Shown here piece after piece: positions 16,730-58,137 of a stretch of DNA of 64,000 nucleotides (positions are counted from its first letter, which is position 1; the number at the start of each line of letters is the position of its first letter). The DNA comes from Eledone cirrhosa. Its lineage: Eukaryota. The translations under genes and the position numbers were made by a program. Below the pieces are notes generated by a model, which worked only from the letters and a program-made list of their open reading frames with translations, searched no databases and was not told where the DNA came from. The stretch is from the NCBI GenBank assembly GCA_964016885.1, contig OZ024745.1, positions 122,574,001-122,638,000 on the forward strand, written 5' to 3'.

Positions 16730-16925
16730 TATATATGAAAAATTCGGGACTCCGATGGCTGAGCTCCTGCCATTTTAACAGCTAGATCCAAACAGTTCAG
16801 ATCTAACTGTTGAATCGGCAGGAGCTCAGTTATCGGGGTCCCGAATTTTTCATATTACCAACTCTACTACACCTAGTATCGAGTACGCTGGCTGGTCTTT
16901 ACTGTATCCATTCTGAATTATACAC
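16730..16925 (+). mobile_element. (TA)n-embedded branched-palindrome element, CpG-decayed copy
   Basis: ATATGAAAAATTCGGGAC...GTCCCGAATTTTCATAT palindrome plus tail TTACCAACTCTACTAC..AGTATCGAGTAC. Confidence 0.8.
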
Positions 16926-20350: not shown

Positions 20351-21753
20351 CTTTATAAACAAAATAATTGTTTCTATTTTTGGCACAAAGCCAGCAATTA
20401 CCCTGTGTATTACTGGTACTTTATTTTATCGACCCCATAAGGATGAAAGGCAAAGTTAACCTTGGCGGGATTTGAACTCAGAATGGCAAGGGCTATAACT
20501 CTATGCGTCAAAGCATGGCGTCCGACCCTCTACCAATGGTTTCTGATTTAGGCACAAGGCCAACATTTTTTGGTGAAGGGAAAATCAATTAAATCAACCC
20601 TAGTGAATTACTGGTACTTTATTTTATCAACTTCACAAGGATGAAAGGCAAAGCTAACCTCAGCCGGATGTGAAATCAGAACACGAAGGGCCGTAACTCT
20701 ATGTCGCGAGGGCATGGTGTCTGACGCTTTACCAATACTGCCAATCCAACACCATTATAAACAAAATAACACTGTTCCAACAGAGCAAGCAGCCGGGCAG
20801 CTATGTTCTAAATCTGACAAAGTCAGTAGTAATATTGGTTTCTTATATAGGCACTAGGCCAGCAATTTTGGGGGAGGGGAAAGTCGATTAAATCGACCCC
20901 AGTGCGTGACTGGTACTTTATTTTATCGACCCCATAAGTTAACCTCGGTGGGATTTGAACTCAAAAGTCAGTAGTAATATTAACAATGATTATGATGATT
21001 ATGATGATATCTAATACAACAACGTTTACAATAGGTACACTGTCACTCTGCATGTCATAACAGGTGACTAAATAGGTTGGTACCAGGAAGTGCATCCAGC
21101 TAAAAAGGACTCCATGATGTGTATGAAGCTTATTCAGAGTCTGCCAAACCTAACCCCTACTATAAAAGGGAGAAAATGGCCTTAATTCTTTAGCATTTAC
21201 ATTACTTATTATTTACTATTGTATTCTCATGATAAAGGCTTTACCTCACATAATTATCTCACATAATATCAAATCTATGAGATTTTGATATTATTTATTT
21301 TGATAACAATACCTTAACATCAGTATGAGTGGCCGGTTACAGTCGATTTTAATGGAAAGAAGTGAGAGAATTCTGACCAAATATGGCTGGTTTAAATGCT
21401 AAAGGGTTAAAACAGTTGTTGTTGCTAATAGTAGTGGTGGAGATGATGATGGCAACGATGATGACATTGATGATATTAAAGATAATAGTGAAATATAAAT
21501 AGATAACTCTATTACACTATGACGTGTTCCAGCCGAAAGGCTGAGGCCATGCTGGGGCACTGCCATAACATCAACAAACATTTCAATTTACACCACTGAA
21601 AATACAGGTAGCTAACAAAGAATGCGTACATCATGGCTGGCGATGTGTTTTTGTTGTTATTGGTTTGATTCCACACTGCTTCCCCCCTCCTCCTCCCCCC
21701 ACATATCGCTTTTTGATGACTAATCATCAGTCTGGACAACATATCAACATATT

Positions 21754-22226
21754 GATGGTGGTGGCGGTGCTGGTGGTGGTGGTGGTGGTGGTGTTGGTGG
21801 AAGTGGTGGCGGTGGTGGTAGTGGTGGTGATGGTAGTGGTGGTGTTGGTGGAAGTGGTGCGGTGGTGGTAGTGGTGGTGGTGGTAGTGGTGGTGGTGGTA
21901 GTGGTGGTGGTGGTGGTGGCAGTGGTAGTAGTGGTGGTGGTGCTGGCAGTGGTGGTAGTGGTGGTGGTGGTGGCTGTGGTGGTAGTGGTGGTGGTGGTAG
22001 TGGTGGTGTTGGTGGAAGTGGTGCAGTGGTGGTAGTGGTGGTAGTGGTAGTGGTGGTGGTGGTAGTGGTGGTGGTGGTGGTGGCAGTGGTAGTAGTGGTG
22101 GTGGTGCTGGCAGTGGTGGTAGTGGTGGTGGTGGTGGTGGTCGTGGTGCTGGCAGTGGTGGTAGTGGTGGTAGTGGTAGTGGTGGTGGTAGTGGTGGTGG
22201 TGGTAGTGGTGGTGGTAGTGGTGGTG
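21754..22226. repeat. (GGT/AGT)n imperfect trinucleotide tract; similar at 24363-24582 and 47229-48370
   Basis: Direct reading. Confidence 0.95.
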
Positions 22227-22312
22227 CAGGAAGGGTGTTCTACCTTCATGGCCAGTCATAGGAATAAAGGTGGATGGATCACCAAAAGTAAACAGGGAAA
22301 AAAAAATACGTT

Positions 22313-24293
22313 AACAGTAGCAGTAGTATTAGTAGCAGTAGCTTTAGTAGCAGTAGCAGTAGTATTAGTAGCAGTAGCTTTAGTAGCAGTAGTAGCAGTA
22401 GCTTTAGTAGCAGTAGCAGTAGTATTAGTAGCAGTAGCTTTAGTAGCAGTAGTAGCAGTAGCTTTAGTAGCAGTAGCAGTAGTATTAGTAGCAGTAGCTT
22501 TAGTAGCAGTAGTAGCAGTAGCTTTAGTAGCAGTAACAGTAGTATTAGTAGCAGTAACAGTAGTATTAGTAACAGTAGCTTTAGTAGCAGTAGTAGCAGT
22601 AGCAGTAGTAGCAGTAGCTTTAGTAGCAGTAACAGTAGTATTAGTAACAGTAGCTTTAGTAGCAGTAACAGTAGTATTAGTAGCAGTAGCTTTAGTAGCA
22701 GTAACAGTAGTATTAGTAACAGTAGCTTTAGTAGCAGTAACAGCAGTATTAGTAACAGTAGCTTTAGTAGCAGTAGTAGCAGTAGCAGTAGTAGCAGTAG
22801 CTCTAGTAGCAGTAACAGTAGTATTAGTAGCAGTAGCTTTAGTAGCAGTAACAGTAGTATTAGTAACAGTAGCTTTAGTAGCAGTAACAGCAGTATTAGT
22901 AGCAGTAGCTCTAGTAGCAGTAACAGTAGTATTAGTAGCAGTAGCTTTAGTAGCAGTAACAGCAGTATTAGTAGCAGTAGCTCTAGTAGCAGTAACAGTA
23001 GTATTAGTAGCAGTAGCTTTAGTAGCAGTAACAGCAGTATTAGTAGCAGTAGCTCTAGTAGCAGTAACAGTAGTATTAGTAGCAGTAGCTTTAGTAGCAG
23101 TAACAGCAGTATTAGTAGCAGTAGCTCTAGTAGCAGTAACAGTAGTATTAGTAGCAGTAGCTTTAGTAGCAGTAACAGCAGTATTAGTAGCAGTAGCTCT
23201 AGTAGCAGTAACAGTAGTATTAGTAGCAGTAGCTTTAGTAGCAGTAACAGCAGTATTAGTAGCAGTAGCTCTAGTAGCAGTAACAGTAGTATTAGTAGCA
23301 GTAGCTTTAGTAGCAGTAACAGCAGTATTAGTAGCAGTAGCTCTAGTAGCAGTAACAGTAGTATTAGTAACAGTAGCTTTAGTAGCAGTAACAGCAGTAT
23401 TAGTAGCAGTAGCTCTAGTAGCAGTAACAGTAGTATTAGTAGCAGTAGCTTTAGTAGCAGTAGCAGTAGCTTTAGTAGTAGTAACAGCAGTATTAGTAGC
23501 AGTAGCTTTAGTAGCAGTAACAGTAGTATTAGTAGCAGTAGCTTTAGTAGCAGTAACAGTAGTATTAGTAGCAGTAGCTTTAGTAGCAGTAACAGTAGTA
23601 TTAGTAGCAGTAGCTTTAGTAGCAGTAGCAGTAGCTTTAGTAGCAGTAACAGCAGTATTAGTAGCAGTAGCTTTAGTAGCAGTAGCTTTAGTAGCAGTAA
23701 CAGTAGTATTAGTAGCAGTAGCTTTAGTAGCAGTAACAGTAGTATTAGTAGCAGTAGCTTTAGTAGCAGTAACAGTAGTATTAGTAGCAGTAGCTTTAGT
23801 AGCAGTAACAGTAGTATTAGTAGCAGTAGCTCTAGTAGCAGTAACAGTAGTATTAGTAACAGTAGCTTTAGTAGCAGTAACAGTAGTATTAGTAGCAGTA
23901 GCTTTAGTAGCAGTAACAGTAGTATTAGTAGCAGTAGCTTTAGTAGCAGTAGCAGTAGCTTTAGTAGCAGTAACAGCAGTATTAGTAGCAGTAGCTTTAG
24001 CAGCAGTAACAGCAGTATTAGTAGCAGTAGCTTTAGCAGCAGTAACAGCAGTGTTAGTAGCAGTAGCTTTAGCAGCAGTAACAGCAGTGTTAGTAGCAGT
24101 AGCTTTAGCAGCAGTAACAGCAGTGGTAGTAGCAGTAGCAGTAGCTTTAGTAGCAGTAACAGCAGTGTTAGTAGCAGTAACAGCAGTGTTAGTAGCAGTA
24201 GCTTTAGTAGCAGTAGCAGTAGCTTTAGTAGCAGTAACAGCAGTGTTAGTAGCAGTAACAGCAGTGTTAGTAGCAGTAGCTTTAGTAGCAGTA
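22313..24293. repeat. ~2-kb trinucleotide-derived minisatellite, 36-bp unit with a 72-bp higher-order period
   Basis: Unit GTAGTATTAGTAGCAGTAGCTTTAGTAGCAGTAACA; alternating TTA/CTA and GTA/GCA variants in the central block. Confidence 0.9.
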
Positions 24294-24504
24294 TCAACAA
24301 CAAAAACAACAGCTATTGAGGTGTGACTATGCCTGGCACTATAGTTCTGTTCCTTAATGCTCAGTGGCAGCAGTGGCAGCTGTAGTAGTAGTGGTGGTGG
24401 TGGTGGTAGTAGTGGTAGTAGTAGTAGTGATGGTGGTAGTAGTAGTAGTAGTAGTGGCGGTAGTAATGGTAGTGGTGGTGGTGGTAGTGGTAGTAGTAGT
24501 GATG

Positions 24505-24563
<59 letters not shown>

Positions 24564-25419
24564 GGTAGTGGTAGTAGTAGTAGGAGGCGGAGTGTGGAAG
24601 TAGTAACACTAGCTGGCCAAACAGCACCAAACAGCACCAACAATAATAATACAGCATGTGTTTGTATATTTATTTACATGTAGCTCCATCTGAAACTCTT
24701 ACAAATTTACACACACCTAAGACAACAACTGGAAAGTTTGATTTATATATATAGAGGCACATGGCTTAGTGGTTAGAGCATTGGCCTTGCAATCGAAAGG
24801 TTGTGAGTTCAATTCTCAGACCGGGTGATGTGTTGTTTCCTTGAGAAAGACACTTTATTTCACATTGCTCCAGTTTACTCAACTGTAGAAATGAGATGAT
24901 AGGGACTGGAGTCCCTATCAATCCACTGCAAAGTGGTCGTGGAGGTGCCACGGCAAAATAGCACCCAGCACTCACTGTAAATGAGGTTGGTGTTAGGAAG
25001 GGCATCCAGCTGTAGAAATCAAGCCATGTGCCTGCACACACACACACACACACATACATACATACTCACATATATATATAAAGAGCAATATGTATTTTTT
25101 GTGGGGGCCGAGGGGCAGTACACACTCTAGCTACATCACTGCTTCCAAATGAATGTAATCAACATAAACTACAGGGAAATGTCCAAGTTTGTATGATTGT
25201 TCATATGTCCACTAATCCATGTATATAAAACACATCAATCCTGGACCTGTACAACAGTTAATACATTCAACACTATTACCATTATCATTGACAGGTTCAT
25301 TAGGATTCTTGAGCTGTATTGCCTTTGATCGTTATTTAAACCCTTGTGGTTAATAAAGAAATTATTATCAATATTTTGGTGGAGAGAGAATAGTCATATA
25401 TATATATGAGACAACAGAG

Positions 25420-25510: not shown

Positions 25511-25799
25511 AGAGACAGGATCACAATGGAGAAACAGAAAAAAGGTCCAGTAAAGACACAAGAAAATCGAAATATATATATATTAGAGAGCTAGGGCCCA
25601 ATGGCTGAACTCTTGCTATTTCGACAACAACTTCCTACTTTCTACTATATTTACACTCTACTATCCCAAGTATCAAGTACTCAGCTGAACTCTGTCTTAC
25701 TAATTGAAACTGTAAAATCCTGATATGTATATATACATATATATGATGATGGCTGAAACTCGATTTCGAGTAATGACATCACTTGATACTTAAGCATGA

Positions 25800-38050: not shown

Positions 38051-39549
38051 TCCATCACATATAATAATGTATGTGGTTGAGTATTCCATGGACACAGGTA
38101 TCCTTAATGTACTTCTGATGGGGATTCATGTCTGCATGGGCACCTAAATCCCTTAGTGAAATAATGGTATATCCTACCAAGTCATACTCAATTGTCATCA
38201 CTGGCTATAGTTTCAAACCAAATAGGTTCTTATGTTTCATTTTTTTCTAGCTGATGAATTTATTAAAAAATTTATTTTTAGAAAAAACATTTTATTGAAC
38301 TCTTATTTAGTTAAAATACAGGTAGGTAATTGTAATTGGTAAACCTGTGTTTAAATCACTACTGACAAGAACCTATCATCATCATCATCATTGTAAGTCT
38401 TTCCATACTAGCATGGGCTGGACGAGTGATCACGGTCTGAGACTAGATGGGTCATAGATCTGGCTCATACTTTACATAAACTATCATATATATAACTTTA
38501 ATAGGTTTCGGTCAGTATTGGCCCAGGCCATGTCTAACTTAATAGCACCACCAATTTATTTATAGACTCTGAACTGTCACTAGAATTACTGCAGTACAAA
38601 TGTATTCCCACAAATTTGATGTCAAAGTCTGGTTGCATCAACAGTAGAAGCATAATGATTGTTTCTACTTTAGGCACAAGGCCAGCAATTACCCCAGTAC
38701 ATTACTGGTGCTTTATTTTATCGACCCCGTAAGAATGAAAGTCAAAGCTAACCTCGGTGTGATTTAAGCTCAGAACGTAAAGGACCATAACTCTATGCTG
38801 CAAACCATGGTGTCTGACACTCTACCGATACTGCCAATCCACTGCACTTATTCACCCAATAATAATAATAATAATTGTTTTTACTTTAGGCATAAGGCCA
38901 GCAATTTGAAGGGGAAGGGAAAGTCGATTAAATCGACCCCAGTACATTACTGGTACTTTATTTTATTGACCCCGTAAGGATGAAAGGTAAAGCTAACCTC
39001 GGTGGGATTTGAAGTCAGAACTTAAAGGGCCGTAATTCTATGCCGCGAAGCATTTAGTCTGACGCTCTACCGATTCTGCCGATCCATCACCTTTAATAAT
39101 AATTGTTTCTACTTTTGGCACAAGGCCAGTAATTATCCCAGTGTATTACTGGTATTTTATTTTATCGACCCCGTAAGGATGAAAGGCAAAGTTAACCTCG
39201 GCGGGATTTGAACTCAGATCATAAAGGGCCGTAACTCTATGCTGCAGAGCATGGTGTCCGACCCTCTACCGATATTGCCAATCCCTAACCCACCATTTAA
39301 TAATACTAATAATAATTAAAGTACGTACACAAGCCATGTAGAAGTGTATCTGTATGATTAAATAGGCATGCATAGTTTAGTTTATTTCAATACCTTATTA
39401 AAACAAATACTGATATTTCTATTCTAAAAAGACAAAACTTTTTCTTCTTACAGCTCAAAGAATATGGTGGACTGTGATTTTTTTTATCACACACAATGAA
39501 TTTTCCAAAATATGGCACCTTCCTATAGCCTCAGGTTATATATATATAT

Positions 39550-39742
39550 CAGAAAGGATGTGGTAAAATACCAGGTGGACCATAACCCACCAGTGTACTC
39601 GATACTTGGGGTAGTAGAGTGGGTAATATGAAAAGATTCTGGACCCCGACGGCTGAGCTCCAGCCGTTTCGACAGCTAGATCCGAATCGTTTGGATCTAG
39701 CTGTCGAAACGGCTGGAGCTCAGCCGTCGGGGTCCAGAATCT

Positions 39743-39750
<8 letters not shown>
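39550..39750 (-). mobile_element. (TA)n-embedded branched-palindrome element, best-preserved copy; others at 25585-25700, 44880-45072, 51412-51610, 51980-52110, 57078-57245
   Basis: ~70-bp unique tail plus near-perfect ~124-bp palindrome 39627-39750 with internal GACGGCTG/CAGCCGT hairpins. Confidence 0.85.
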
Positions 39751-39826
<76 letters not shown>

Positions 39827-40679
39827 TTATATGTGTGTATATATATATGTGTGTGTGTATATTTATATATATATATATATAGAGAGAGAGATAGAGAAAG
39901 AAATGTATGTGCATATATATATATACATATATGTATATATACATATATAAATATACACATATATAAATACACACACACACACACATATATATATATGGGG
40001 TGGGGGTGTATGTGTGAGCATATCCATGTCATTGTTTACATTCATTCTCTGTCTGTTTATGTCCTGTAATATAGTGGTTCGACAAATAGAAGTTGATATA
40101 TTAAGTAACACACTTGAAAAATAATCACTAGGAGTCGATATGATTGACAAAACCCTTTCAAATTTGCAGCCAAAAGGAATAAAAATTCTCCTTATAACGA
40201 AATATATCAGATCTGCCATTTCTGTACTGTTGGAAAGTTTTTGCAATCACTAGGAGAAAAAGATCCAAAATATGCGATACCGTGTGGCGTGTATTGTAGA
40301 ATTTATTGGCTTTATTACCAATAAATCATCAATATATTAAAAAAACATTTTTTTTATCTCCAAACCGGCTGAAATCATCCTTAGTTTTACTATACAAAAC
40401 TGTTTATTTTAAAGTGTTTATATTTATACAAAAACATTCCACCATAATTCTAAATTATGTTCCAAATACCTGCTTGATAATAAGATAATTAGCTATATTA
40501 CTAAATCATCTCAAATTTTTGATTAGTTTTCCAAATGATTTGAAAATTATACGCAGTGTATTTCATTAGAAATATGGTAAGAAAAAGGTTGTTAGCACAT
40601 TGTTTTCATTTGGAGCACACAATGTGTAAGTTTAATAAGTGATTGCCAAAAATATTCTTTCACATCCTTGACATTAATA

Positions 40680-44884: not shown

Positions 44885-45689
44885 AACGAGTAGGACCCCG
44901 ACGGCTGAGCTCACGCCGTTTCGACGGCTAATTCTGGACGAATTAGCCGCCGAAACGGCTTGAGCTCAGCCGTCGGGGTCCTACTCGTTCCTATTACCCA
45001 CTCTACTACCTTAAGTATTGAGTACTTTGGTGCGTTATGGTCCACCTGGTTCCTTACCACATTTCCTTCGTTATATATATATATATATATATATATTTTT
45101 AAAAAATACCCCTCTTTCTCTCTCTCTCTCTCTTTCGCTTTCTCTCTCTATAAAAATATATGTGTATGTACGTACGTACGTACGTATGTACATGTGTGTG
45201 TGTGTGAGAGGGAGAAATCCCTTATTCTTCAGCGAACTGACGCAAACACACGCAGTTATAATTGAAGAGTGTGTTTATAATCACACACAAACCTTGACTA
45301 TTACTAAGAAAATATCAAAAATCAATGTGCGTGATGTGTGCACGCACGTTCGGATAATAATAATAATTATGATGATAATAATGATGATGATGATGGTGGT
45401 GGTGGTGGTGGTGGTGGTGATGATGATGATGGTGGTGGTAGTGATGATGATGGTGGTGGCGATGATGATGATGGTGGTGGTGATGATGGTCGTGATGATA
45501 ATTAATAATAAATAATAATAACAGAGGCAACAGCGATGTATGTTACTGATAAGAAAGGAAACATTAAAAACTGAGGCTAATGATGATGCCAGTGATGACA
45601 ATGTATCATCATCATCACCATCACCATCATCATCATCATTAACCATTAACCAGGGTATATATATATCGTGGTTACCTTACCCTGGATAA

Positions 45690-45751
<62 letters not shown>

Positions 45752-46263
45752 AACGTGAACATATAGGCAAGTTTGTTGATAACAGCCAGCAATATTTATG
45801 TTAGTGCTGGGGCAACGAAACCCTTACAGATATTACAACGGCTCAGAAAGAAAAAAAACAGTGTAGATTAACAATAGAAAGGTAGAGAGAGCTAGATGAG
45901 TTAGGAGAGTAAGACAAAGAGAGAGATATAGAGGGAGTGTGGGGGAAGAGGCCCGAGATGTGTGGATTGATGGAGGGGGATTGCGCACTCATAGCCCTGT
46001 ATATGTATATTATTCATTATTCCATCATATATATAATATATATGATGACGAATTCAAAAGCTTTGAGAGGAAACGGGGAGAAACTCTATAGGAGAAAGAA
46101 CAAAGATTAAAATAAATAGATAAACTCCTTTACATTTGGTCTTTTAAAACTGGGAACATCTGATACACACACACACACATATATATATATATACATACTT
46201 ACAATCATATACATACATACATACATACATACACACACACATATATATATATATTTATAGAAA

Positions 46264-46314
46264 AGCTTCTACAGGACTAGAACTGTTTCATTCGTGAGAA
46301 ATCATCAGGAAGCT
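46264..46314 (-). ncRNA. Minimal type-I hammerhead ribozyme (mutated inverted twin on + at 46315-46360)
   Basis: Minus: AGCTTC-CTGATGA-TTTC-TCAC-GAAT-GAA-ACAG-TTCTAGTC-CTGT-A-GAAGCT; stem I 6 bp, GUA cleavage triplet, U-U at the base of stem II. Confidence 0.75.
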
Positions 46315-46527
46315 CCGGATGATTTCCCACGAATGAAACAGTTCTAGTCCTGTAGAATCTTTTCTATATTAAACATTTATACTCTGCTTTCTATTGAGTA
46401 CTTTACTTACCGATTGAACCGGGGATAACTTTATATATATATATATATGTAAACATATATATATATATATACACATATATACACACACACATATATATAT
46501 GTATATATATATATATATGTATATATG

Positions 46528-50454: not shown

Positions 50455-51006
50455 TATATATATATATATATATATTGTTATGCTTTGGGAGGGTCATGTT
50501 GCCAATAAGAAACACACGCACCAGTTGCTTTCCACTTCAATTTATTATAAATTAAATTTATAAATTTAAGAATTTATAAATTTCCGGTTGGTTGGTTGGT
50601 TGGTTCCATAACCGGAGGGTTGTTCATATATTGTCAAAGTTCTTTCGTCACACATTCTGTGACCTCTTCGGTGACTGGGGATTCTTTTCTTTGTTTTTGT
50701 GCCTCTCCTTTGTTCTGTCCTACGCCATCACAAAAACAAGATGGCGTAGGACAGAACAAAGGAGAGGCACAAAAACAAAGAAAAGAATCCCCAGTCACCG
50801 AAGAGGTCACAGAATGTGTGACGAAAGAACTTTGACAATATATGAACAACCGTCCGGTTATGGAACCAACCAACCAACCAACCAACCGGAAATTTATAAA
50901 TTTAATTTATAATAAATTGGAGTGGAAAGCAACTGGTGCGTGTGTTTCTTATTGGCAATATGACCCTCCCAAAGCATAACAATATATATATATATATATA
51001 TATATC
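50455..51006. repeat. ~250-bp-arm near-perfect palindrome flanked by (TA)n, one hammerhead-like motif per arm
   Basis: Arms ~50475-50729 and 50740-50983 with a 10-nt spacer ACAAAAACAA. Confidence 0.95.
50794..50836 (+). ncRNA. Hammerhead-like motif with U4C core variant (mirror copy on minus at 50633-50675)
   Basis: GTCA-CCGAAGA-G-GTCAC-AGAATGT-GTGAC-GAA-AG-AA-CT-T-TGAC. Confidence 0.55.
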
Positions 51007-51109
51007 CCGTAGATATCATTTCTCTAATAAAATAAATATACCTCTAGTCTAATATATTGAGTACCTTTTTAAACAGTTGTCGCCGCATGACTATTTTCAT
51101 CGGGATTCT

Positions 51110-51413: not shown

Positions 51414-51605
51414 CGAAGGAAGTGTGGTAAGGAACCAGGTGGACCATAACGCACCAGACTACTCGATACTTTGGGTAGTAGAGTGGGTATAAAAATAGTC
51501 AAGACCCCGACGGCAGAGCTCAAGCCGTTTCGACGGGTATTTCTGCGTCCAGAAATAGCCGTCGAAACGGCTTGAGCTCTGCCGTCGGGGTCTCGACTAT
51601 TTTCC

Positions 51606-51652
<47 letters not shown>

Positions 51653-51902: not shown

Positions 51903-51982
<80 letters not shown>

Positions 51983-52210
51983 TAGGGTGTTGTAAAAACC
52001 AGGTAGATCATAACCCACTAGAGTACTCGATACTAGGAGTAGTTGAGTGGGTAATATGAAAAGATTCAGGACCCCCGACGAATAGTTCGGATCTAGCTAC
52101 CGAAACGGCCCCTCTTCTTTTAATAACATTATCTTTTTAATAACACTATCTTTGACGAATCAAAAAAGAAAAACAGACCCTTAAATATATCTCCCGTGCT
52201 ATTTCCAACT

Positions 52211-54095: not shown

Positions 54096-54482
54096 GGGGG
54101 GGGGGGCAGCATGGTCTCATCCGATGGCTGGAACAGGTATAAGAGTAAAAGAGTATGTATAATATATATATATCATCATCATCGTCATTATCGCGTAACT
54201 TCCAATTTTCACGCTAGCATGGGTTAGACGGGCTGTCCCATTAGAAGCCAGTTGTGCCAGGTGACTGTCTTGCTCCTATAAAACTGTTTCTGGCTAGGTT
54301 TCTACGGCTGGATGCCCTTCCTAACGCCAACCACATTTACAGTGTGTGCTGGGTGCTTTTTATCGTGACACCTACACGACCATTTTACAGTGTGGACTGG
54401 CTGCTTTTTGTCGTGACACCTACATGACCGCTTTACAATGTGGGCTGGATACTTTTCTGTGATACCAACATATATATATATG

Positions 54483-55833
54483 TTGCCCCGAATCAGTGGA
54501 GGATCAGTAACATCGTCCCAGTGCCAAAGAAGGGAGATCTCTCTAACCCCAACAACTACAGGGGGATCTCACTGACGTCACTTGTGGCAAAGACCCTCAA
54601 CAGGATGATTCTTAACAGGATCCAGCCCAAGATGGAGAAGAAGCTCAGGGACAACCAGAACGGCTTCAGAGAGGGAAGATCAACCACCAATCACATCCTG
54701 GTGCTGAGGAGGTTATTACAGGGAGCTAGAGCAAAGTGCCTTCCTGCGGTCATGGTTTTCATTGACTTTAGGAAGGCTTTTGATTCTGTGGACCGTCACT
54801 GTCTGATGAAGATCTTACAGGCTTATGGAATCCCCAAGAAGATAGTGGACCTAATATCACTGCTCTACACCAACACCAAAGCCCAAGTCATTACACCTGA
54901 TGGGATGACAGAGTTCTTTGAGATACTGGCTGGAGTGCTCCAGGGAGAAACATTGGCTCCCTACCTTTTTATCATCGCAGTGGACTATTGGATGCGCCTT
55001 GCACTGGAGAAACACCAGGACTCTGGCTTTACAGTAACAACGGCTCAGAGCAGGAGTGTTAAGGCAAAAAAGATATCGGATGCTGAATTTGCTGACGATA
55101 TAGTTCTGATGACAAACACAGTAAAGGAGGCAGAGGATTTGATGCAGGAAGTGGAGACTGTGCCAATGAATGTGGGGCTGAGAATGAATGAGATTAAAAC
55201 GAAGTATCTGGTAGAGAATATTAAGAAGCCAGAGAAGATTACTAATGTAGGCGGGAAGTCATTAGAATTGGTTGAGGACTTCCTGTATTTGGGAACACGG
55301 AAGATGATGTGGTCGAGAGGAAGAGCAAAGCCTGGGCGGCGTGCCACAGCTTGAGATTTGTGTGGAAGTCGAACCTTCGTAAAAACGTGAAGATCCGTCT
55401 CTTCATTGCTGTAGCGGAGTCTGTGCTGCTGTACGGGTCTGAGACTTGGACACTGACCAAGAAACTCACTCAGATGGTGGATGGGTGCTACACGATAATG
55501 CTGAGGATGGCTCTGAACATTAATCAGTATACACTGAGGATGAAGAACTCAGAGCTGTATGGGAGCCTCCCAAAAGTCAGCTCGAGAGTGACACAGGGGA
55601 GACTGAGGTTAGCTGGACATGCTCACCGACATCCAGAGCTGACACTGCACTCAGTGCTCCTATGGGAGCCCCTACATGGACACCCTAGAAGAAGAAGACC
55701 AAGGTTAACATATGTTGATGTCCTAAGGACAGACACTGGTCTCTTGGAGACGCAGGACATGGCAGCGATAATGAAGGACAGAGACTGCTGGAGAGAACTC
55801 GTCCATGGATCTCGGGAATTTTACCCGCCCTAG
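54483..55833 (+). mobile_element. 5'-truncated RTE-clade LINE with nearly intact RT and one frameshift near 55300
   Basis: IVPVPKKGD..NYRGISL, QNGFR.GRST, FIDFRKAFDSV, GVLQGETLAPYLF, EFADD, FLYLG; continues ESVLLYGSETW...RLRLAGH; flanked by (TA)n. Confidence 0.95.
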
Positions 55834-56166
55834 AGAATATATATATATAATCGAAGAAATTGATAAAAGAGAAGCAAGCCGTTAAACTATATTTATAAGA
55901 AGCTCTATAAACGAGTTAGTAGCAGCAAGGAGTTGCTTGAGGTATGTTTTTCTGCTAGGTAGAGGTATAGATTTGAGAGACATAAGTAACGGTTGTTTCT
56001 CCAACATGATGGCAAGTAAAGTATAGGGCTCTACTGAAAGGAGCACGATAATAAAATGTTACAGTATCGTGAGATATATATATATATATATATACAAATA
56101 ACAAGGCAAACAACATTGTACAATGAAGAAATGTATTAGTTTTACGCTTGATATAGTACAAAAAGA

Positions 56167-56705: not shown

Positions 56706-56880
56706 CACATATATATGCAGGTACATACACACACACACACACACATATATATATACATATATATATGCATATATAAGTAGGTACATACACATACACACAC
56801 ACACATATATATGTCTATACATATATATATATAAAGGTTAAAATACTGGAGTGTGGCCGATGATACTTCTTGTTGTTTTA

Positions 56881-56925
56881 ATTGCCCTGATGAGTCCTTA
56901 ATAGGACGAAACATTGTCGGCTAAT
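56881..56925 (+). ncRNA. Minimal type-I hammerhead ribozyme with canonical core
   Basis: ATTGCC-CTGATGA-GTCCT-TAAT-AGGAC-GAA-ACA-T-TGT-C-GGC, then AATAAA at 56923; predicted cleavage after C56918. Confidence 0.85.
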
Positions 56926-56971
56926 AAAGACTTTTGATGTATTGAAGGCTTCTTTGTTTTACTTTCTTAAC

Positions 56972-57018
<47 letters not shown>

Positions 57019-57344
57019 CATATATACATAGCACATACACACATGTATATATATATATACATATATATAAAACAAAGAGGGTGTGGCAAGATGCCAGGTG
57101 GACCATGATGCACCAGAGTACTCAATACATGAGGTAGTAGAGTGAGTAAAATGAAAAGAGTCAGGACCTCAACAGCTAGATGGTTCAGATGTAGCTGTTG
57201 AAACAGTCAGAGCTCAGCCGTTGGGGTCCTGACTCTTTTCATATACCCCACCCACACCGCCCCTTTCAATGTACAGTTATGTTGGTCCCACAACATCCAG
57301 GCCGAAACAAATGAGATCGTGTAGGTGTCACGACAAAAAACACA

Positions 57345-58137
57345 CAGTCCACGCTGTAAATGTGGCCGTGTAGGCAACACGGTAAAAACCTCCCAGCCCC
57401 ACACTGTAAATGTGGTTGGTGTTAGGAAGGGCATCCAGCTGTAGAAAACCCGCCAGACAGTCCACGCTGTAATGTGGCCGTGTAGGCAACACGGTAAAAA
57501 CCTCCCAGCCCCACACTGTAAATGTGGTTGGTGTTAGGAAGGGCATCCAGCTGTAGAAAACCCGCCAGACAGTCCACGCTGTAATGTGGCCGTGTAGGCA
57601 ACACGGTAAAAACCTCCCAGCCCCACACTGTAAATGTGGTTGGTGTTAGGAAGGGCATCCAGCTGTAGAAAACCCGCCAGACAGTCCACGCTGTAATGTG
57701 GCCGTGTAGGCAACACGGTAAAAACCTCCCAGCCCCACACTGTAAATGTGGTTGGTGTTAGGAAGGGCATCCAGCTGTAGAAAACCCGCCAGACAGTCCA
57801 CGCTGTAAATGTGGCCGTGTAGGCAACACGGTAAAAACCTCCCAGCCCCACACTGTAAATGTGGTTGGTGTTAGGAAGGGCATCCAGCTGTAGAAAACCC
57901 GCCAGACAGTCCACGCTGTAATGTGGCCGTGTAGGCAACACGGTAAAAACCTCCCAGCCCCACACTGTAAATGTGGTTGGTGTTAGGAAGGGCATCCAGC
58001 TGTAGAAAACCCGCCAGACAGTCCACGCTGTAAATGTGGCCGTGTAGGCAACACGGTAAAAACCTCCCAGCCCCACACTGTAAATGTGGTTGGTGTTAGG
58101 AAGGGCATCCAACTGTAGAAAACCCGCCAGACAGTCC
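57345..58137 (+). repeat. 112/113-bp tandem array (about 7 near-identical units) of the family-C SINE body
   Basis: Repeat offsets of 112 bp in the ORF track; SINE tail follows at 58137-58232. Confidence 0.9.

Follow-up and report, generated by a model that had tools for sequence, protein, structure and literature searches.

Non-long-terminal-repeat (non-LTR) retrozymes of animals are small AT-rich units without coding capacity that pair with themselves and contain a type I hammerhead ribozyme as their core; the main texts of two reports describe them as monomers and tandem arrays in Penelope-rich genomes (Cervera & de la Pena 2020, PMC7229834; Li, Clavereau & Pollet 2026, preprint 10.64898/2026.07.22.740005). 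For Penelope-like elements, inverted 5'-truncated copies, a one-sided "tail" and a bias towards (TA)n microsatellites have been described (PMC8557442, main text). Hammerhead repeats and Penelope-like elements are widespread in animals, and the inverted copies, one-sided tails and microsatellite-bound insertions that accompany their integration lack an explanation. The subject of this report is an element at positions 39550-39750 of a 64,000-nt stretch of Eledone cirrhosa DNA (contig OZ024745.1, positions 122,574,001 to 122,638,000; this whole stretch is called the window below). It consists of a ~76-nt head and a 125-bp palindrome lying within (TA)n, and the family to which it belongs is designated fam1. 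The element is one copy of a very abundant non-coding repeat of 200 bp. With a probability of about 0.6, this repeat descends from hammerhead-bearing retroelements of the "solo retrozyme" type as a ribozyme-dead, inverted-duplicated derivative, reverse transcription primed in (TA)n being its predicted means of spread. The element is neither a hammerhead, nor a retrozyme in the strict sense, nor a miniature inverted-repeat transposable element (MITE).

The two arms of the palindrome are 61 nt long each, 98% complementary and separated by a 3-nt spacer. The parts of the element are the following.

39540..39549, no strand: upstream (TA)5 run, the insertion setting of the element, read directly.
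39550..39625, plus strand: unique head of ~76 nt (the "tail" of the sequence-only reading made earlier of this DNA), present on one side only and containing GTACTCGATAC and a predicted hairpin.
39626..39686, plus strand: left palindrome arm, composed of ATAT and outer stem A (39630-39642), ACCCCGAC, inner segment B, GTTTCGAC and C.
39687..39689, no strand: palindrome centre, with C as the central base in this copy.
39690..39750, plus strand: right arm, composed of C' (the would-be helix II strand), GAAAC (39706-39710), the B' hairpin (39711-39725), GTC (39726-39728), and GGGGTCC with outer stem A' down to CTTTTC at 39746.
39747..39801, no strand: (TA)n run 3' of the element, ~55 nt, followed by (GA)n; target microsatellite and/or the element's own tail.

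The sequence-only reading had seen half a hammerhead in each arm, that is, a helix II strand, GAAAC, a hairpin, GUC and a helix I strand without CUGANGA. Reading of both arms confirmed it: the GAAA box, the helix III hairpin and the UH triplet are present in the right arm, with GGGGTCC following, and have their equivalent on the other strand, and the CUGANGA box is absent from both arms of 39626-39750. The string GAAAC-N15-GTCGGGGT (up to 3 mismatches) occurs six times in the window, twice in each of three palindromes, and in none of 100 shuffles. CTGANGA-N14-GAAAC occurs across the window at one site, 56887.

The hammerhead ancestry proposed here depends on a sister family with 1,693 candidates in the genome. 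One copy lies in the window.

46256..46432, minus strand: sister-family copy with a head, a 113-bp palindrome (55-nt arms, 95% complementary) and TA flanks; found by palindrome search and our own motif reading.

The minus strand of this copy was read as AGCTTC-CTGATGA-TTTCTCACGAAT-GAAA-CAG-TTCTAGTC-CTG-TA-GAAGCT. The layout, the outer stem and the head motif GTACTCRATAC are common to fam1 and the sister family, and at the junction of head and outer stem 17 of 18 positions are identical, which was reached in none of 1,000 shuffles. In many sister copies, one helix I strand stands directly 5' of CUGAUGA and is followed by helix II (UUUC-NNNN-GAAU), GAAA, helix III (ACAG/CUGU, loop UUCUAGUC), the triplet GUA and the other helix I strand. 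On this motif reading, every sister-family arm would carry a complete minimal type I hammerhead. The outer stem A:A', taken as hammerhead helix I in the sequence-only reading and at first here, was dropped in this role for the sister family, given the helix I strand adjoining CUGAUGA, helix III and the triplet just described. RNAfold placed the core of the canonical units inside a long helix I, with separate helix II and helix III hairpins in L196. As to the heads, ARAGORN found no transfer RNA (tRNA) gene, and no Rfam family of tRNA, 5S or 7SL type was matched at E<=10 by fam1, the sister family or the canonical units; the fam1 head has no recognised origin among these comparisons. A B-box-like GGTTCAATCGG was noticed in the sister head by eye only.

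The link to hammerhead elements claimed by the sequence-only reading therefore stands through the sister family (same layout, the 17/18 junction, all core motifs), and its Penelope-like part is circumstantial only. The motif TYGAGTAC, said to be shared with "true hammerhead islands", fared likewise: at 46394 and 51057 it falls within sister-family heads, and at 14 and 58718 it looks like chance, about four such 8-mers being expected in 64 kb on both strands by our own arithmetic. The second of these heads belongs to a fragment.

51007..51100, minus strand: sister-family fragment in which a head containing GGTACTCAATA leads into the first part of the outer stem and a TA run; the opposite side borders on (CA)n.

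The islands themselves did not hold up as named, since a covariance-model match was obtained only at 56881-56925, which had not been named, and none at 46245-46445. The hammerhead at 56881-56925 (plus strand), used as a control, scored 31.7 bits with Hammerhead_1 (gathering score 34, E 1.4e-6), and at the gathering score the whole window gave no Rfam match. It was also observed that this near-threshold canonical type I hammerhead is held by a ~140-bp unit between TA runs (56834-56975, plus strand) that resembles another hammerhead family in (TA)n.

One genome holds a plain form, an inverted-duplicated form with ribozyme motifs and an inverted-duplicated form minus half of them. The plain form, in which the whole helix I strand abuts CTGATGA, gave 87 + 92 = 179 matches (control 0). 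For the palindromic sister form, the pattern ATCATCAG-N0-10-CTGATGA-N8-16-GAAAC gave 3,251 + 3,236 = 6,487 matches (control 0), loci with both arms intact being counted twice. An exact 19-mer of the fam1 arm occurs 27,898 + 28,008 = 55,906 times genome-wide (reversed control 0), and therefore fam1 exists in tens of thousands of copies. Abundance runs opposite to ribozyme completeness (179, 6,487, 55,906), as a trend and not as a ratio, since the patterns differ in strictness. The series bears on whether self-cleavage brakes spread, and on whether fold-back copying belongs to the integration mechanism.

Among 25 plain-form loci inspected by eye, 17 run from the head into a complete hammerhead and six from a hammerhead into a reverse-complemented head, the helix I strand of these six being shortened beside (TA)n; one is palindromic, and one has no recognisable head. 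Units with one ribozyme and a retained part of the opposite arm gave 48 matches (control 0), and 20 of them were viewed, 12 in one orientation to the head and eight in the other. By our reading such units may be derived from the palindromic form through deletion between 4-nt direct repeats. At L106 (G000:C22:13601800-13604300, minus strand), a head with a decayed palindromic copy is followed by a retrozyme-like array, in which the hammerhead module is repeated in tandem as four near-identical 91-bp units with TTAAA(TA)5 between them.

A search of the 3.0-Gb assembly with the fam1 unit returned 2,695 first-look candidates. Scoring of 40 places gave 82 matches; the full-length ones align over positions 1-203 and are 88-93% identical to the unit, apart from the copy in the window itself, which matches at 100%. 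The unit starts with CAGAWAGGG.. (variants AACAAAGAGG.. and AACGAAGG..) and ends with ..GAATCTTTTC. That complete copies end at one point next to (TA)n, as the earlier reading had it, was borne out by 28 non-redundant full-length copies checked for TA flanks: a TA run follows in 24, precedes in 24 and is found on both sides in 20. Two copies without TA before the head (L020, L023) have a short ATATATA after the palindrome; two others (L021, L015) lack TA after it. Copies are dispersed singly or neighbour unrelated elements in one TA tract, and no head-to-tail tandems were seen among them. Modular arrays of different elements within one TA tract were found at L005, L038 and L053. (L-numbers denote the genomic loci viewed, and fam1a to fam1d are subfamilies.)

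Contigs of four sequencing runs (organisms A-D) compared with 38900-40450 were dominated by repeats; none spanned the element, and no empty site was seen. Word depth summed over the element falls from ~1e6 in A through 1e4 (B) and 5e2 (C) to near 0 (D), and the neighbouring repeat at 38900-39300 is high in all four. This gives a weak hint of lineage restriction of fam1. The neighbouring repeat is extremely abundant in its own right, with a summed contig word depth of 1e6-4e7 in organisms A-D, unlike the palindromic family, which is abundant only in A and ~100-fold lower in B.

The arms of fam1 were compared in an alignment of 26 palindromes from five subfamilies, column x being paired with column 142-x. 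Co-variation of the arms between copies, asserted earlier from the window alone, was borne out genome-wide: pairing holds in 95.4% of cells, and two-sided change was seen at 24 of the 58 pairs (142 cells), a level reached in none of 500 shuffles; alignments slid by 1-3 columns give 5-9 pairs. The majority arms show no mismatch in 58 pairs of fam1a (15 copies), 56 of fam1b (5 copies) and 56 of fam1c (3 copies). Fixed arm differences number 14 between a and b, 15 between a and c, and 5 between b and c; all 34 are two-sided, none is one-sided and none is in the G:T state. Within fam1a copies, mismatch between arms is 61/861 (7.1%), and the per-site difference between copies over the same columns is 9.0%. 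Because of these two values, fam1 copies appear to start with perfect arms and then to decay about neutrally, with no upkeep of pairing after insertion.

The branched fold suggested by the sequence-only reading, with B as a hairpin of its own, was not upheld. A local hairpin of 3-5 bp is possible in segment B around GAGCTC, but local co-variation is lacking. A conserved cruciform was accordingly rejected, the changes at columns 29/113, 36/106 and 37/105 keeping the arm pairing and disrupting the local hairpin.

The centres of the palindromes are informative on how the second arm arose. For the sister family, 40 further loci (the first places listed of the palindromic-pattern matches) were viewed, and 28 copies were parsed for orientation. 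Between ..TCATCAG and CTGATGA.. the centre holds a remnant of the helix I strand, 0 to ~10 nt long, which adjoins CUGAUGA without a break on just one of the strands; the versions in one subfamily are GATTC, GAGATTC and AATGAGATTC. The intact side points away from the head in 10 of the parsed copies, towards it in 8, to both sides in 2 and to neither in 8, and both orientations are found inside single subfamilies. The fam1a palindrome is perfect through its odd centre. Thirteen copies have T as the central base, 5 have A (6 if a copy with an indel is counted) and 1 has C, and ~12 fam1a copies have small deletions or palindromic additions there. A third palindrome of the window, unrelated to these families (50586-50883, 144-nt arms, 99%), has a 10-nt centre that is continuous in a non-inverted relative at L075. 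As a separate observation, this palindrome (50500-50990) extends to ~230 nt with one indel, and its arms hold CYGAAGAG-GTCACAGAATGTGTGAC-GAAAG. The relative (L075:960-1290) lies upstream of a TA run and a GIY-YIG match, and 50500-50990 resembles a fresh fold-back of another hammerhead-type element.

In the preferred reading, one arm would have been copied from the other by complementary DNA (cDNA) turning back, because the arms are cut at the same point, the centre consists of the next template bases, the palindrome is perfect through the loop, no fixed change is one-sided and both centre orientations exist. The cDNA copied from the 3' end would fold back and copy its own arm, giving the palindrome. 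In the sister family the turn would lie inside helix I, with the ribozyme motifs kept; in fam1 it would lie in the loop of the would-be helix II, with CUGANGA lost. The unit of head and palindrome would then multiply in the manner of a short interspersed nuclear element (SINE), with enzymes supplied either by a Penelope-like element or by a long interspersed nuclear element (LINE) with a TA tail. Of the earlier proposal of fold-back self-priming at stem II during each insertion, the fold-back origin fits the variable two-orientation sister centre and the 34 two-sided differences; regeneration at each insertion is not supported, one centre being shared by most fam1a copies. Cleavage in trans, proposed as its counterpart, finds nothing in the analysis to support it.

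The palindrome could instead have been made once per family and then inherited, nothing being regenerated. Selection would keep a long 3' hairpin with (UA)n as a recognition site for reverse transcriptase, as in stem-loop-dependent LINE/SINE pairs. This possibility, judged clearly below an even chance, agrees with the single centre of most fam1a copies, with the near-neutral decay of single copies (7.1% against 9.0%) and with head and palindrome always occurring together at a fixed junction. A stem directly ahead of (UA)n is also formed on folding of the 3' ends of two Penelope-like loci, L077 (z -3.3) and L067 (z -2.6). It is opposed by the 34 fixed subfamily differences, none of which is one-sided or a G:T intermediate, and by a palindrome perfect through its loop, beyond the demands of selection on RNA structure. 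The asymmetric centre in both orientations within subfamilies (10 against 8) and the centre remnants of graded length, all of which match the helix I strand, argue in the same direction.

Hairpin ends of parvoviruses have a small asymmetric palindrome centre that is present in two orientations, flip and flop, in about equal amounts, and this arises from copying via a folded single strand. The likeness is a mechanistic analogy only, with no relation of sequence or kind; in the present case the palindrome is internal to a cellular repeat and has a head on one side. The two centre orientations suggest that the palindrome is re-made via a single-stranded hairpin stage in at least some copying rounds. 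A bolder version, rather doubtful at present, is that the palindrome would not be inherited: in most retrotransposition rounds, snap-back of the cDNA would build it anew from one arm, the centre flipping like a parvoviral hairpin. If this were true, the family would preserve, across the whole genome, a natural record of a "rolling-hairpin" step in integration of the Penelope/retrozyme type; the inverted copies and one-sided "tails" of Penelope-like elements would be explained by it, and loss of self-cleavage would be shown to let such elements multiply far better.

As to the mode of spread, RNA-mediated copying of fam1 and sister units is favoured on the structure of the copies, because terminal inverted repeats are lacking, family chimeras and (CT)n 3' junctions occur, head starts vary and a tandem hammerhead array exists among the relatives. 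In one chimera (L031), the 5' part of the sister family is joined to the fam1 right arm just after GAAAC; in another (L113), two half elements are joined at their palindrome centres beside a LINE tail. The terminal TATA is replaced by (CT)n at some 3' junctions (L041, L049, L083, L084). Head starts vary by a few to 18 nt or are shortened (L013, L024, L050, L053). Half elements occur as a head with a left arm ending exactly at the centre (L026, L027, L048, L061, L042, L035, L032) and as a right arm only (L033, and twice in L056); both kinds would result if the palindrome broke at its centre.

Two sources of enzymes were considered. Penelope-like elements with GIY-YIG endonuclease number at least 10,596 candidates, and all 150 that were scored passed the cut-off; their open reading frames (ORFs) reach 1,096 aa and their 3' ends continue into (TA)n. 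The Penelope-type insertion signature, namely (TA)n bias, an inverted copy abutting a direct one and a one-sided extension, is present in fam1 as a resemblance. A likeness with the Penelope-like L067 and L077 (..CCYGNTTTTCA(TA)n) is short and was found by eye only. The second source is a LINE family, for which 4,262 first-look candidates with 94-96% identity were counted; one member lies in the window.

54428..55851, plus strand: 5'-truncated LINE (RVT_1, E 5.5e-33) ending in ..CCCTAGAGAA(TA)5; member of the 4,262-candidate family.

By our reading, ~15 of 22 LINE 3' ends are followed by a TA run, some of them short. Mobilisation by such a TA-tailed LINE and not by a Penelope-like element would make fam1 an ordinary SINE that shares only its (TA)n tail, the hammerhead remnants being historical. 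This is a tentative alternative with the odds against it. The LINE family is abundant and young, of an age similar to fam1a; its copies end in ..CCCGCCYTAGA and then TA runs, in some cases just 4-8 repeats before unique DNA (L107, L110, L116, L118), and fam1 needs no ribozyme. A 3' tail common to element and LINE of the same genome, as in SINEs, does exist in the form of the simple (TA)n repeat only. Against a LINE partner, Penelope-like endonuclease matches outnumber the LINE candidates, animal hammerhead repeats track Penelope-like elements (bioRxiv 10.64898/2026.07.22.740005, main text), and inverted duplication, one-sided extension and TA bias are Penelope-type traits (PMC8557442, main text).

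A number of results weigh against descent from hammerhead-bearing retroelements by fold-back and reverse transcription. In 39500-39800 no Rfam hammerhead family was matched at E<=10, nor was any in the sister copy at 46245-46445; for the canonical and tandem sister units the sole hammerhead match was to Hammerhead_HH9, with 15.3-15.4 bits where the gathering score is 52. The sister helix II has only 3 bp with U.U at its base. A U.U at this place is also found in the axolotl retrozyme hammerhead according to the main text of PMC7229834. The sequence-only reading had advised looking for a parent of fam1 with CUGANGA upstream; this was done genome-wide in three pattern searches, and no real parent was found among the 5 + 3 + 18 matches. 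The first five were a chimera, truncated copies and chance, and the next three were chance; both searches limited helix II to 30 nt, a limit which a 35-nt one could escape. The third search, free of that limit, gave 18 matches (control 3), comprising 6 point mutants of GACGGCTGAGCT and 12 in an unrelated repeat. That repeat, seen at 12 loci (L198-L210), is a family of its own sharing ..GGACCCCGTACTGACGAGCTCCTCCGCAAGATCGGA...

Further points on the same side concern the partner and the fold-back itself. Blastn of fam1 and the sister family against 12 of the GIY-YIG Penelope-like loci gave no match at E<=0.01, that is, no sequence shared with terminal repeats or the 3' end of the autonomous element, as would be expected of a Penelope-like derivative, was found in these 12 loci. 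The LINE 3' end has no sequence in common with the element beyond the TA run, which counts against the LINE partner as well. No target-site duplication was readable at the few insertions outside TA runs (L020, L021, L023). The half elements were dropped as a guide to the RNA strand, as both kinds occur. The centre common to most fam1a copies fits plain inheritance as well as regeneration, and a simple fold-back leaves the one-sided head, and the flipping of the centre with a fixed head, unaccounted for.

A further candidate, improbable on the structure of the copies viewed, is a DNA (class II) transposon of fold-back or MITE-like kind that targets TA microsatellites, with the palindrome as long terminal inverted repeats and the head as a second fused module. 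TA runs on both sides, the modular arrays within one TA tract (L005, L038, L053) and the centre deletions and small palindromic additions typical of DNA hairpins would suit it, and DNA elements targeting TA microsatellites, such as the plant SaTar, are described (PMC5907723, main text). The unit ends (CAGAWAGGG.. and ..GAATCTTTTC) are not inverted repeats of each other, which also led to the rejection of an ordinary MITE, and the head stands on one side only. The junction of head and palindrome is fixed and co-diverges between families, the absence of a visible target-site duplication at the three insertions outside TA runs counts here too, and the chimeras and variable 3' junctions resemble template switching. 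The derivation of the arms from hammerheads and the tandem hammerhead array speak against it too.

A Helitron was rejected: one head variant, read in reverse, does end in CTGA, yet TC is missing from the opposite end, and the AACAAAG.. and AACGAAG.. heads do not fit. A non-mobile host family of hairpin-RNA or microRNA-like genes can be set aside as very improbable, since the weak matches to many models that would favour it (e.g., mir-1305, 52 bits against a gathering score of 63) are all below the gathering score and on both strands, and tens of thousands of decaying copies lie in microsatellites. In 39500-39800 there were 34 such weak Rfam matches, mostly to microRNA-type models, and these sub-threshold matches, like those at 46245-46445, are treated as a generic response to any long hairpin. 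A family of perfect hairpins in TA repeats that is this large will be mis-annotated as microRNA precursors or MITEs.

Within the window, copies were located by blastn of 39550-39752 against it, the sequences then being read out; 39550-39752 (plus strand) is the query's own match. The other copies are listed below.

16731..16891, minus strand: fam1a copy with a complete palindrome and a diverged head start (blastn and reading).
25585..25700, minus strand: degenerate relative, weak, with a head-like part and one arm only (27-nt blastn match at 25654-25680, and reading).
44893..45062, minus strand: complete fam1b copy, outer stem GGAACGAGTAGG, inner stem GGCTAATTC (blastn and reading).
51416..51610, plus strand: fam1d copy, outer stem AAAATAGTCAAG, arms of 54 nt, 96% complementary (blastn and reading).
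51979..52109, plus strand: fam1a copy, head and start of the left arm, then internal deletion and truncation (blastn and reading).
57078..57251, plus strand: fam1 copy whose left inner segment B was lost between CGAC/CAAC direct repeats (blastn and reading).

Seven copies had been claimed at the outset; six are clear members, and the one at 25585 is a degenerate relative only. Two other features of the window were observed. The ORF at 57534-58136 (minus strand) has a PAP2_C domain match (E 2.9e-9) and is probably a host-gene exon. In 21500-24700, both strands have very long open frames, in more than one frame each; GC skew reaches 0.43, Pfam gave no match, and the region resembles a low-complexity or tandem-repeat block.

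In comparison with described systems, an intact type I hammerhead in every unit, which defines retrozymes in the strict sense, is lacking in fam1 and is present in the sister family at the motif level only. The sister family nevertheless parallels the non-LTR retrozymes in having both an array (of 91-bp units) and "solo" units, and both families share with them the short, AT-rich, non-coding, self-pairing unit. They differ from these in that the commonest form here is an inverted duplication of the ribozyme, in fam1 only of its 3' half, and in the one-sided head, the (TA)n embedding and the mostly dispersed units of 165-200 bp. In the passages of the retrozyme literature compared (PMC7229834; 10.64898/2026.07.22.740005), the palindromic form is unmentioned. 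More generally, the literature searched (main texts) held no palindromised hammerhead unit with a head, no half-hammerhead palindrome family and no case of two centre orientations. Plant SaTars are likewise non-autonomous and (TA)n-flanked and form modular arrays within one microsatellite; they are MULE-derived, with terminal inverted repeats and 10-bp duplications outside microsatellites, whereas fam1 is without terminal inverted repeats (PMC5907723, main text).

The present families are short, interspersed and non-coding repeats with ties to the type I hammerhead. The same is reportedly true of Sm-alpha, a SINE-like repeat of schistosomes that carries such a hammerhead. Unlike the families described here, Sm-alpha is not known to be palindromic or tied to TA microsatellites.

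Insertions of Penelope-like elements resemble the present families in their bias to (TA)n microsatellites, in the inverted truncated copy abutting a direct one, in the "tail" at one end and in the minimal hammerheads of their terminal repeats (Craig et al. 2021, PMC8557442; Cervera & de la Pena 2014, PMC4209133; main texts). Relative to the values given there, the one-sided part is here 65-76 nt and not 30-40, and an ORF is absent. The arms of fam1 and the sister family are, in addition, cut at the same point, the whole being a defined multiplying unit. On the best reading of these likenesses and differences, fam1 would be placed with the non-autonomous elements of retrozyme/Penelope type, as a variant thereof, and the element may record how mobile elements carrying hammerheads fold back during copying.

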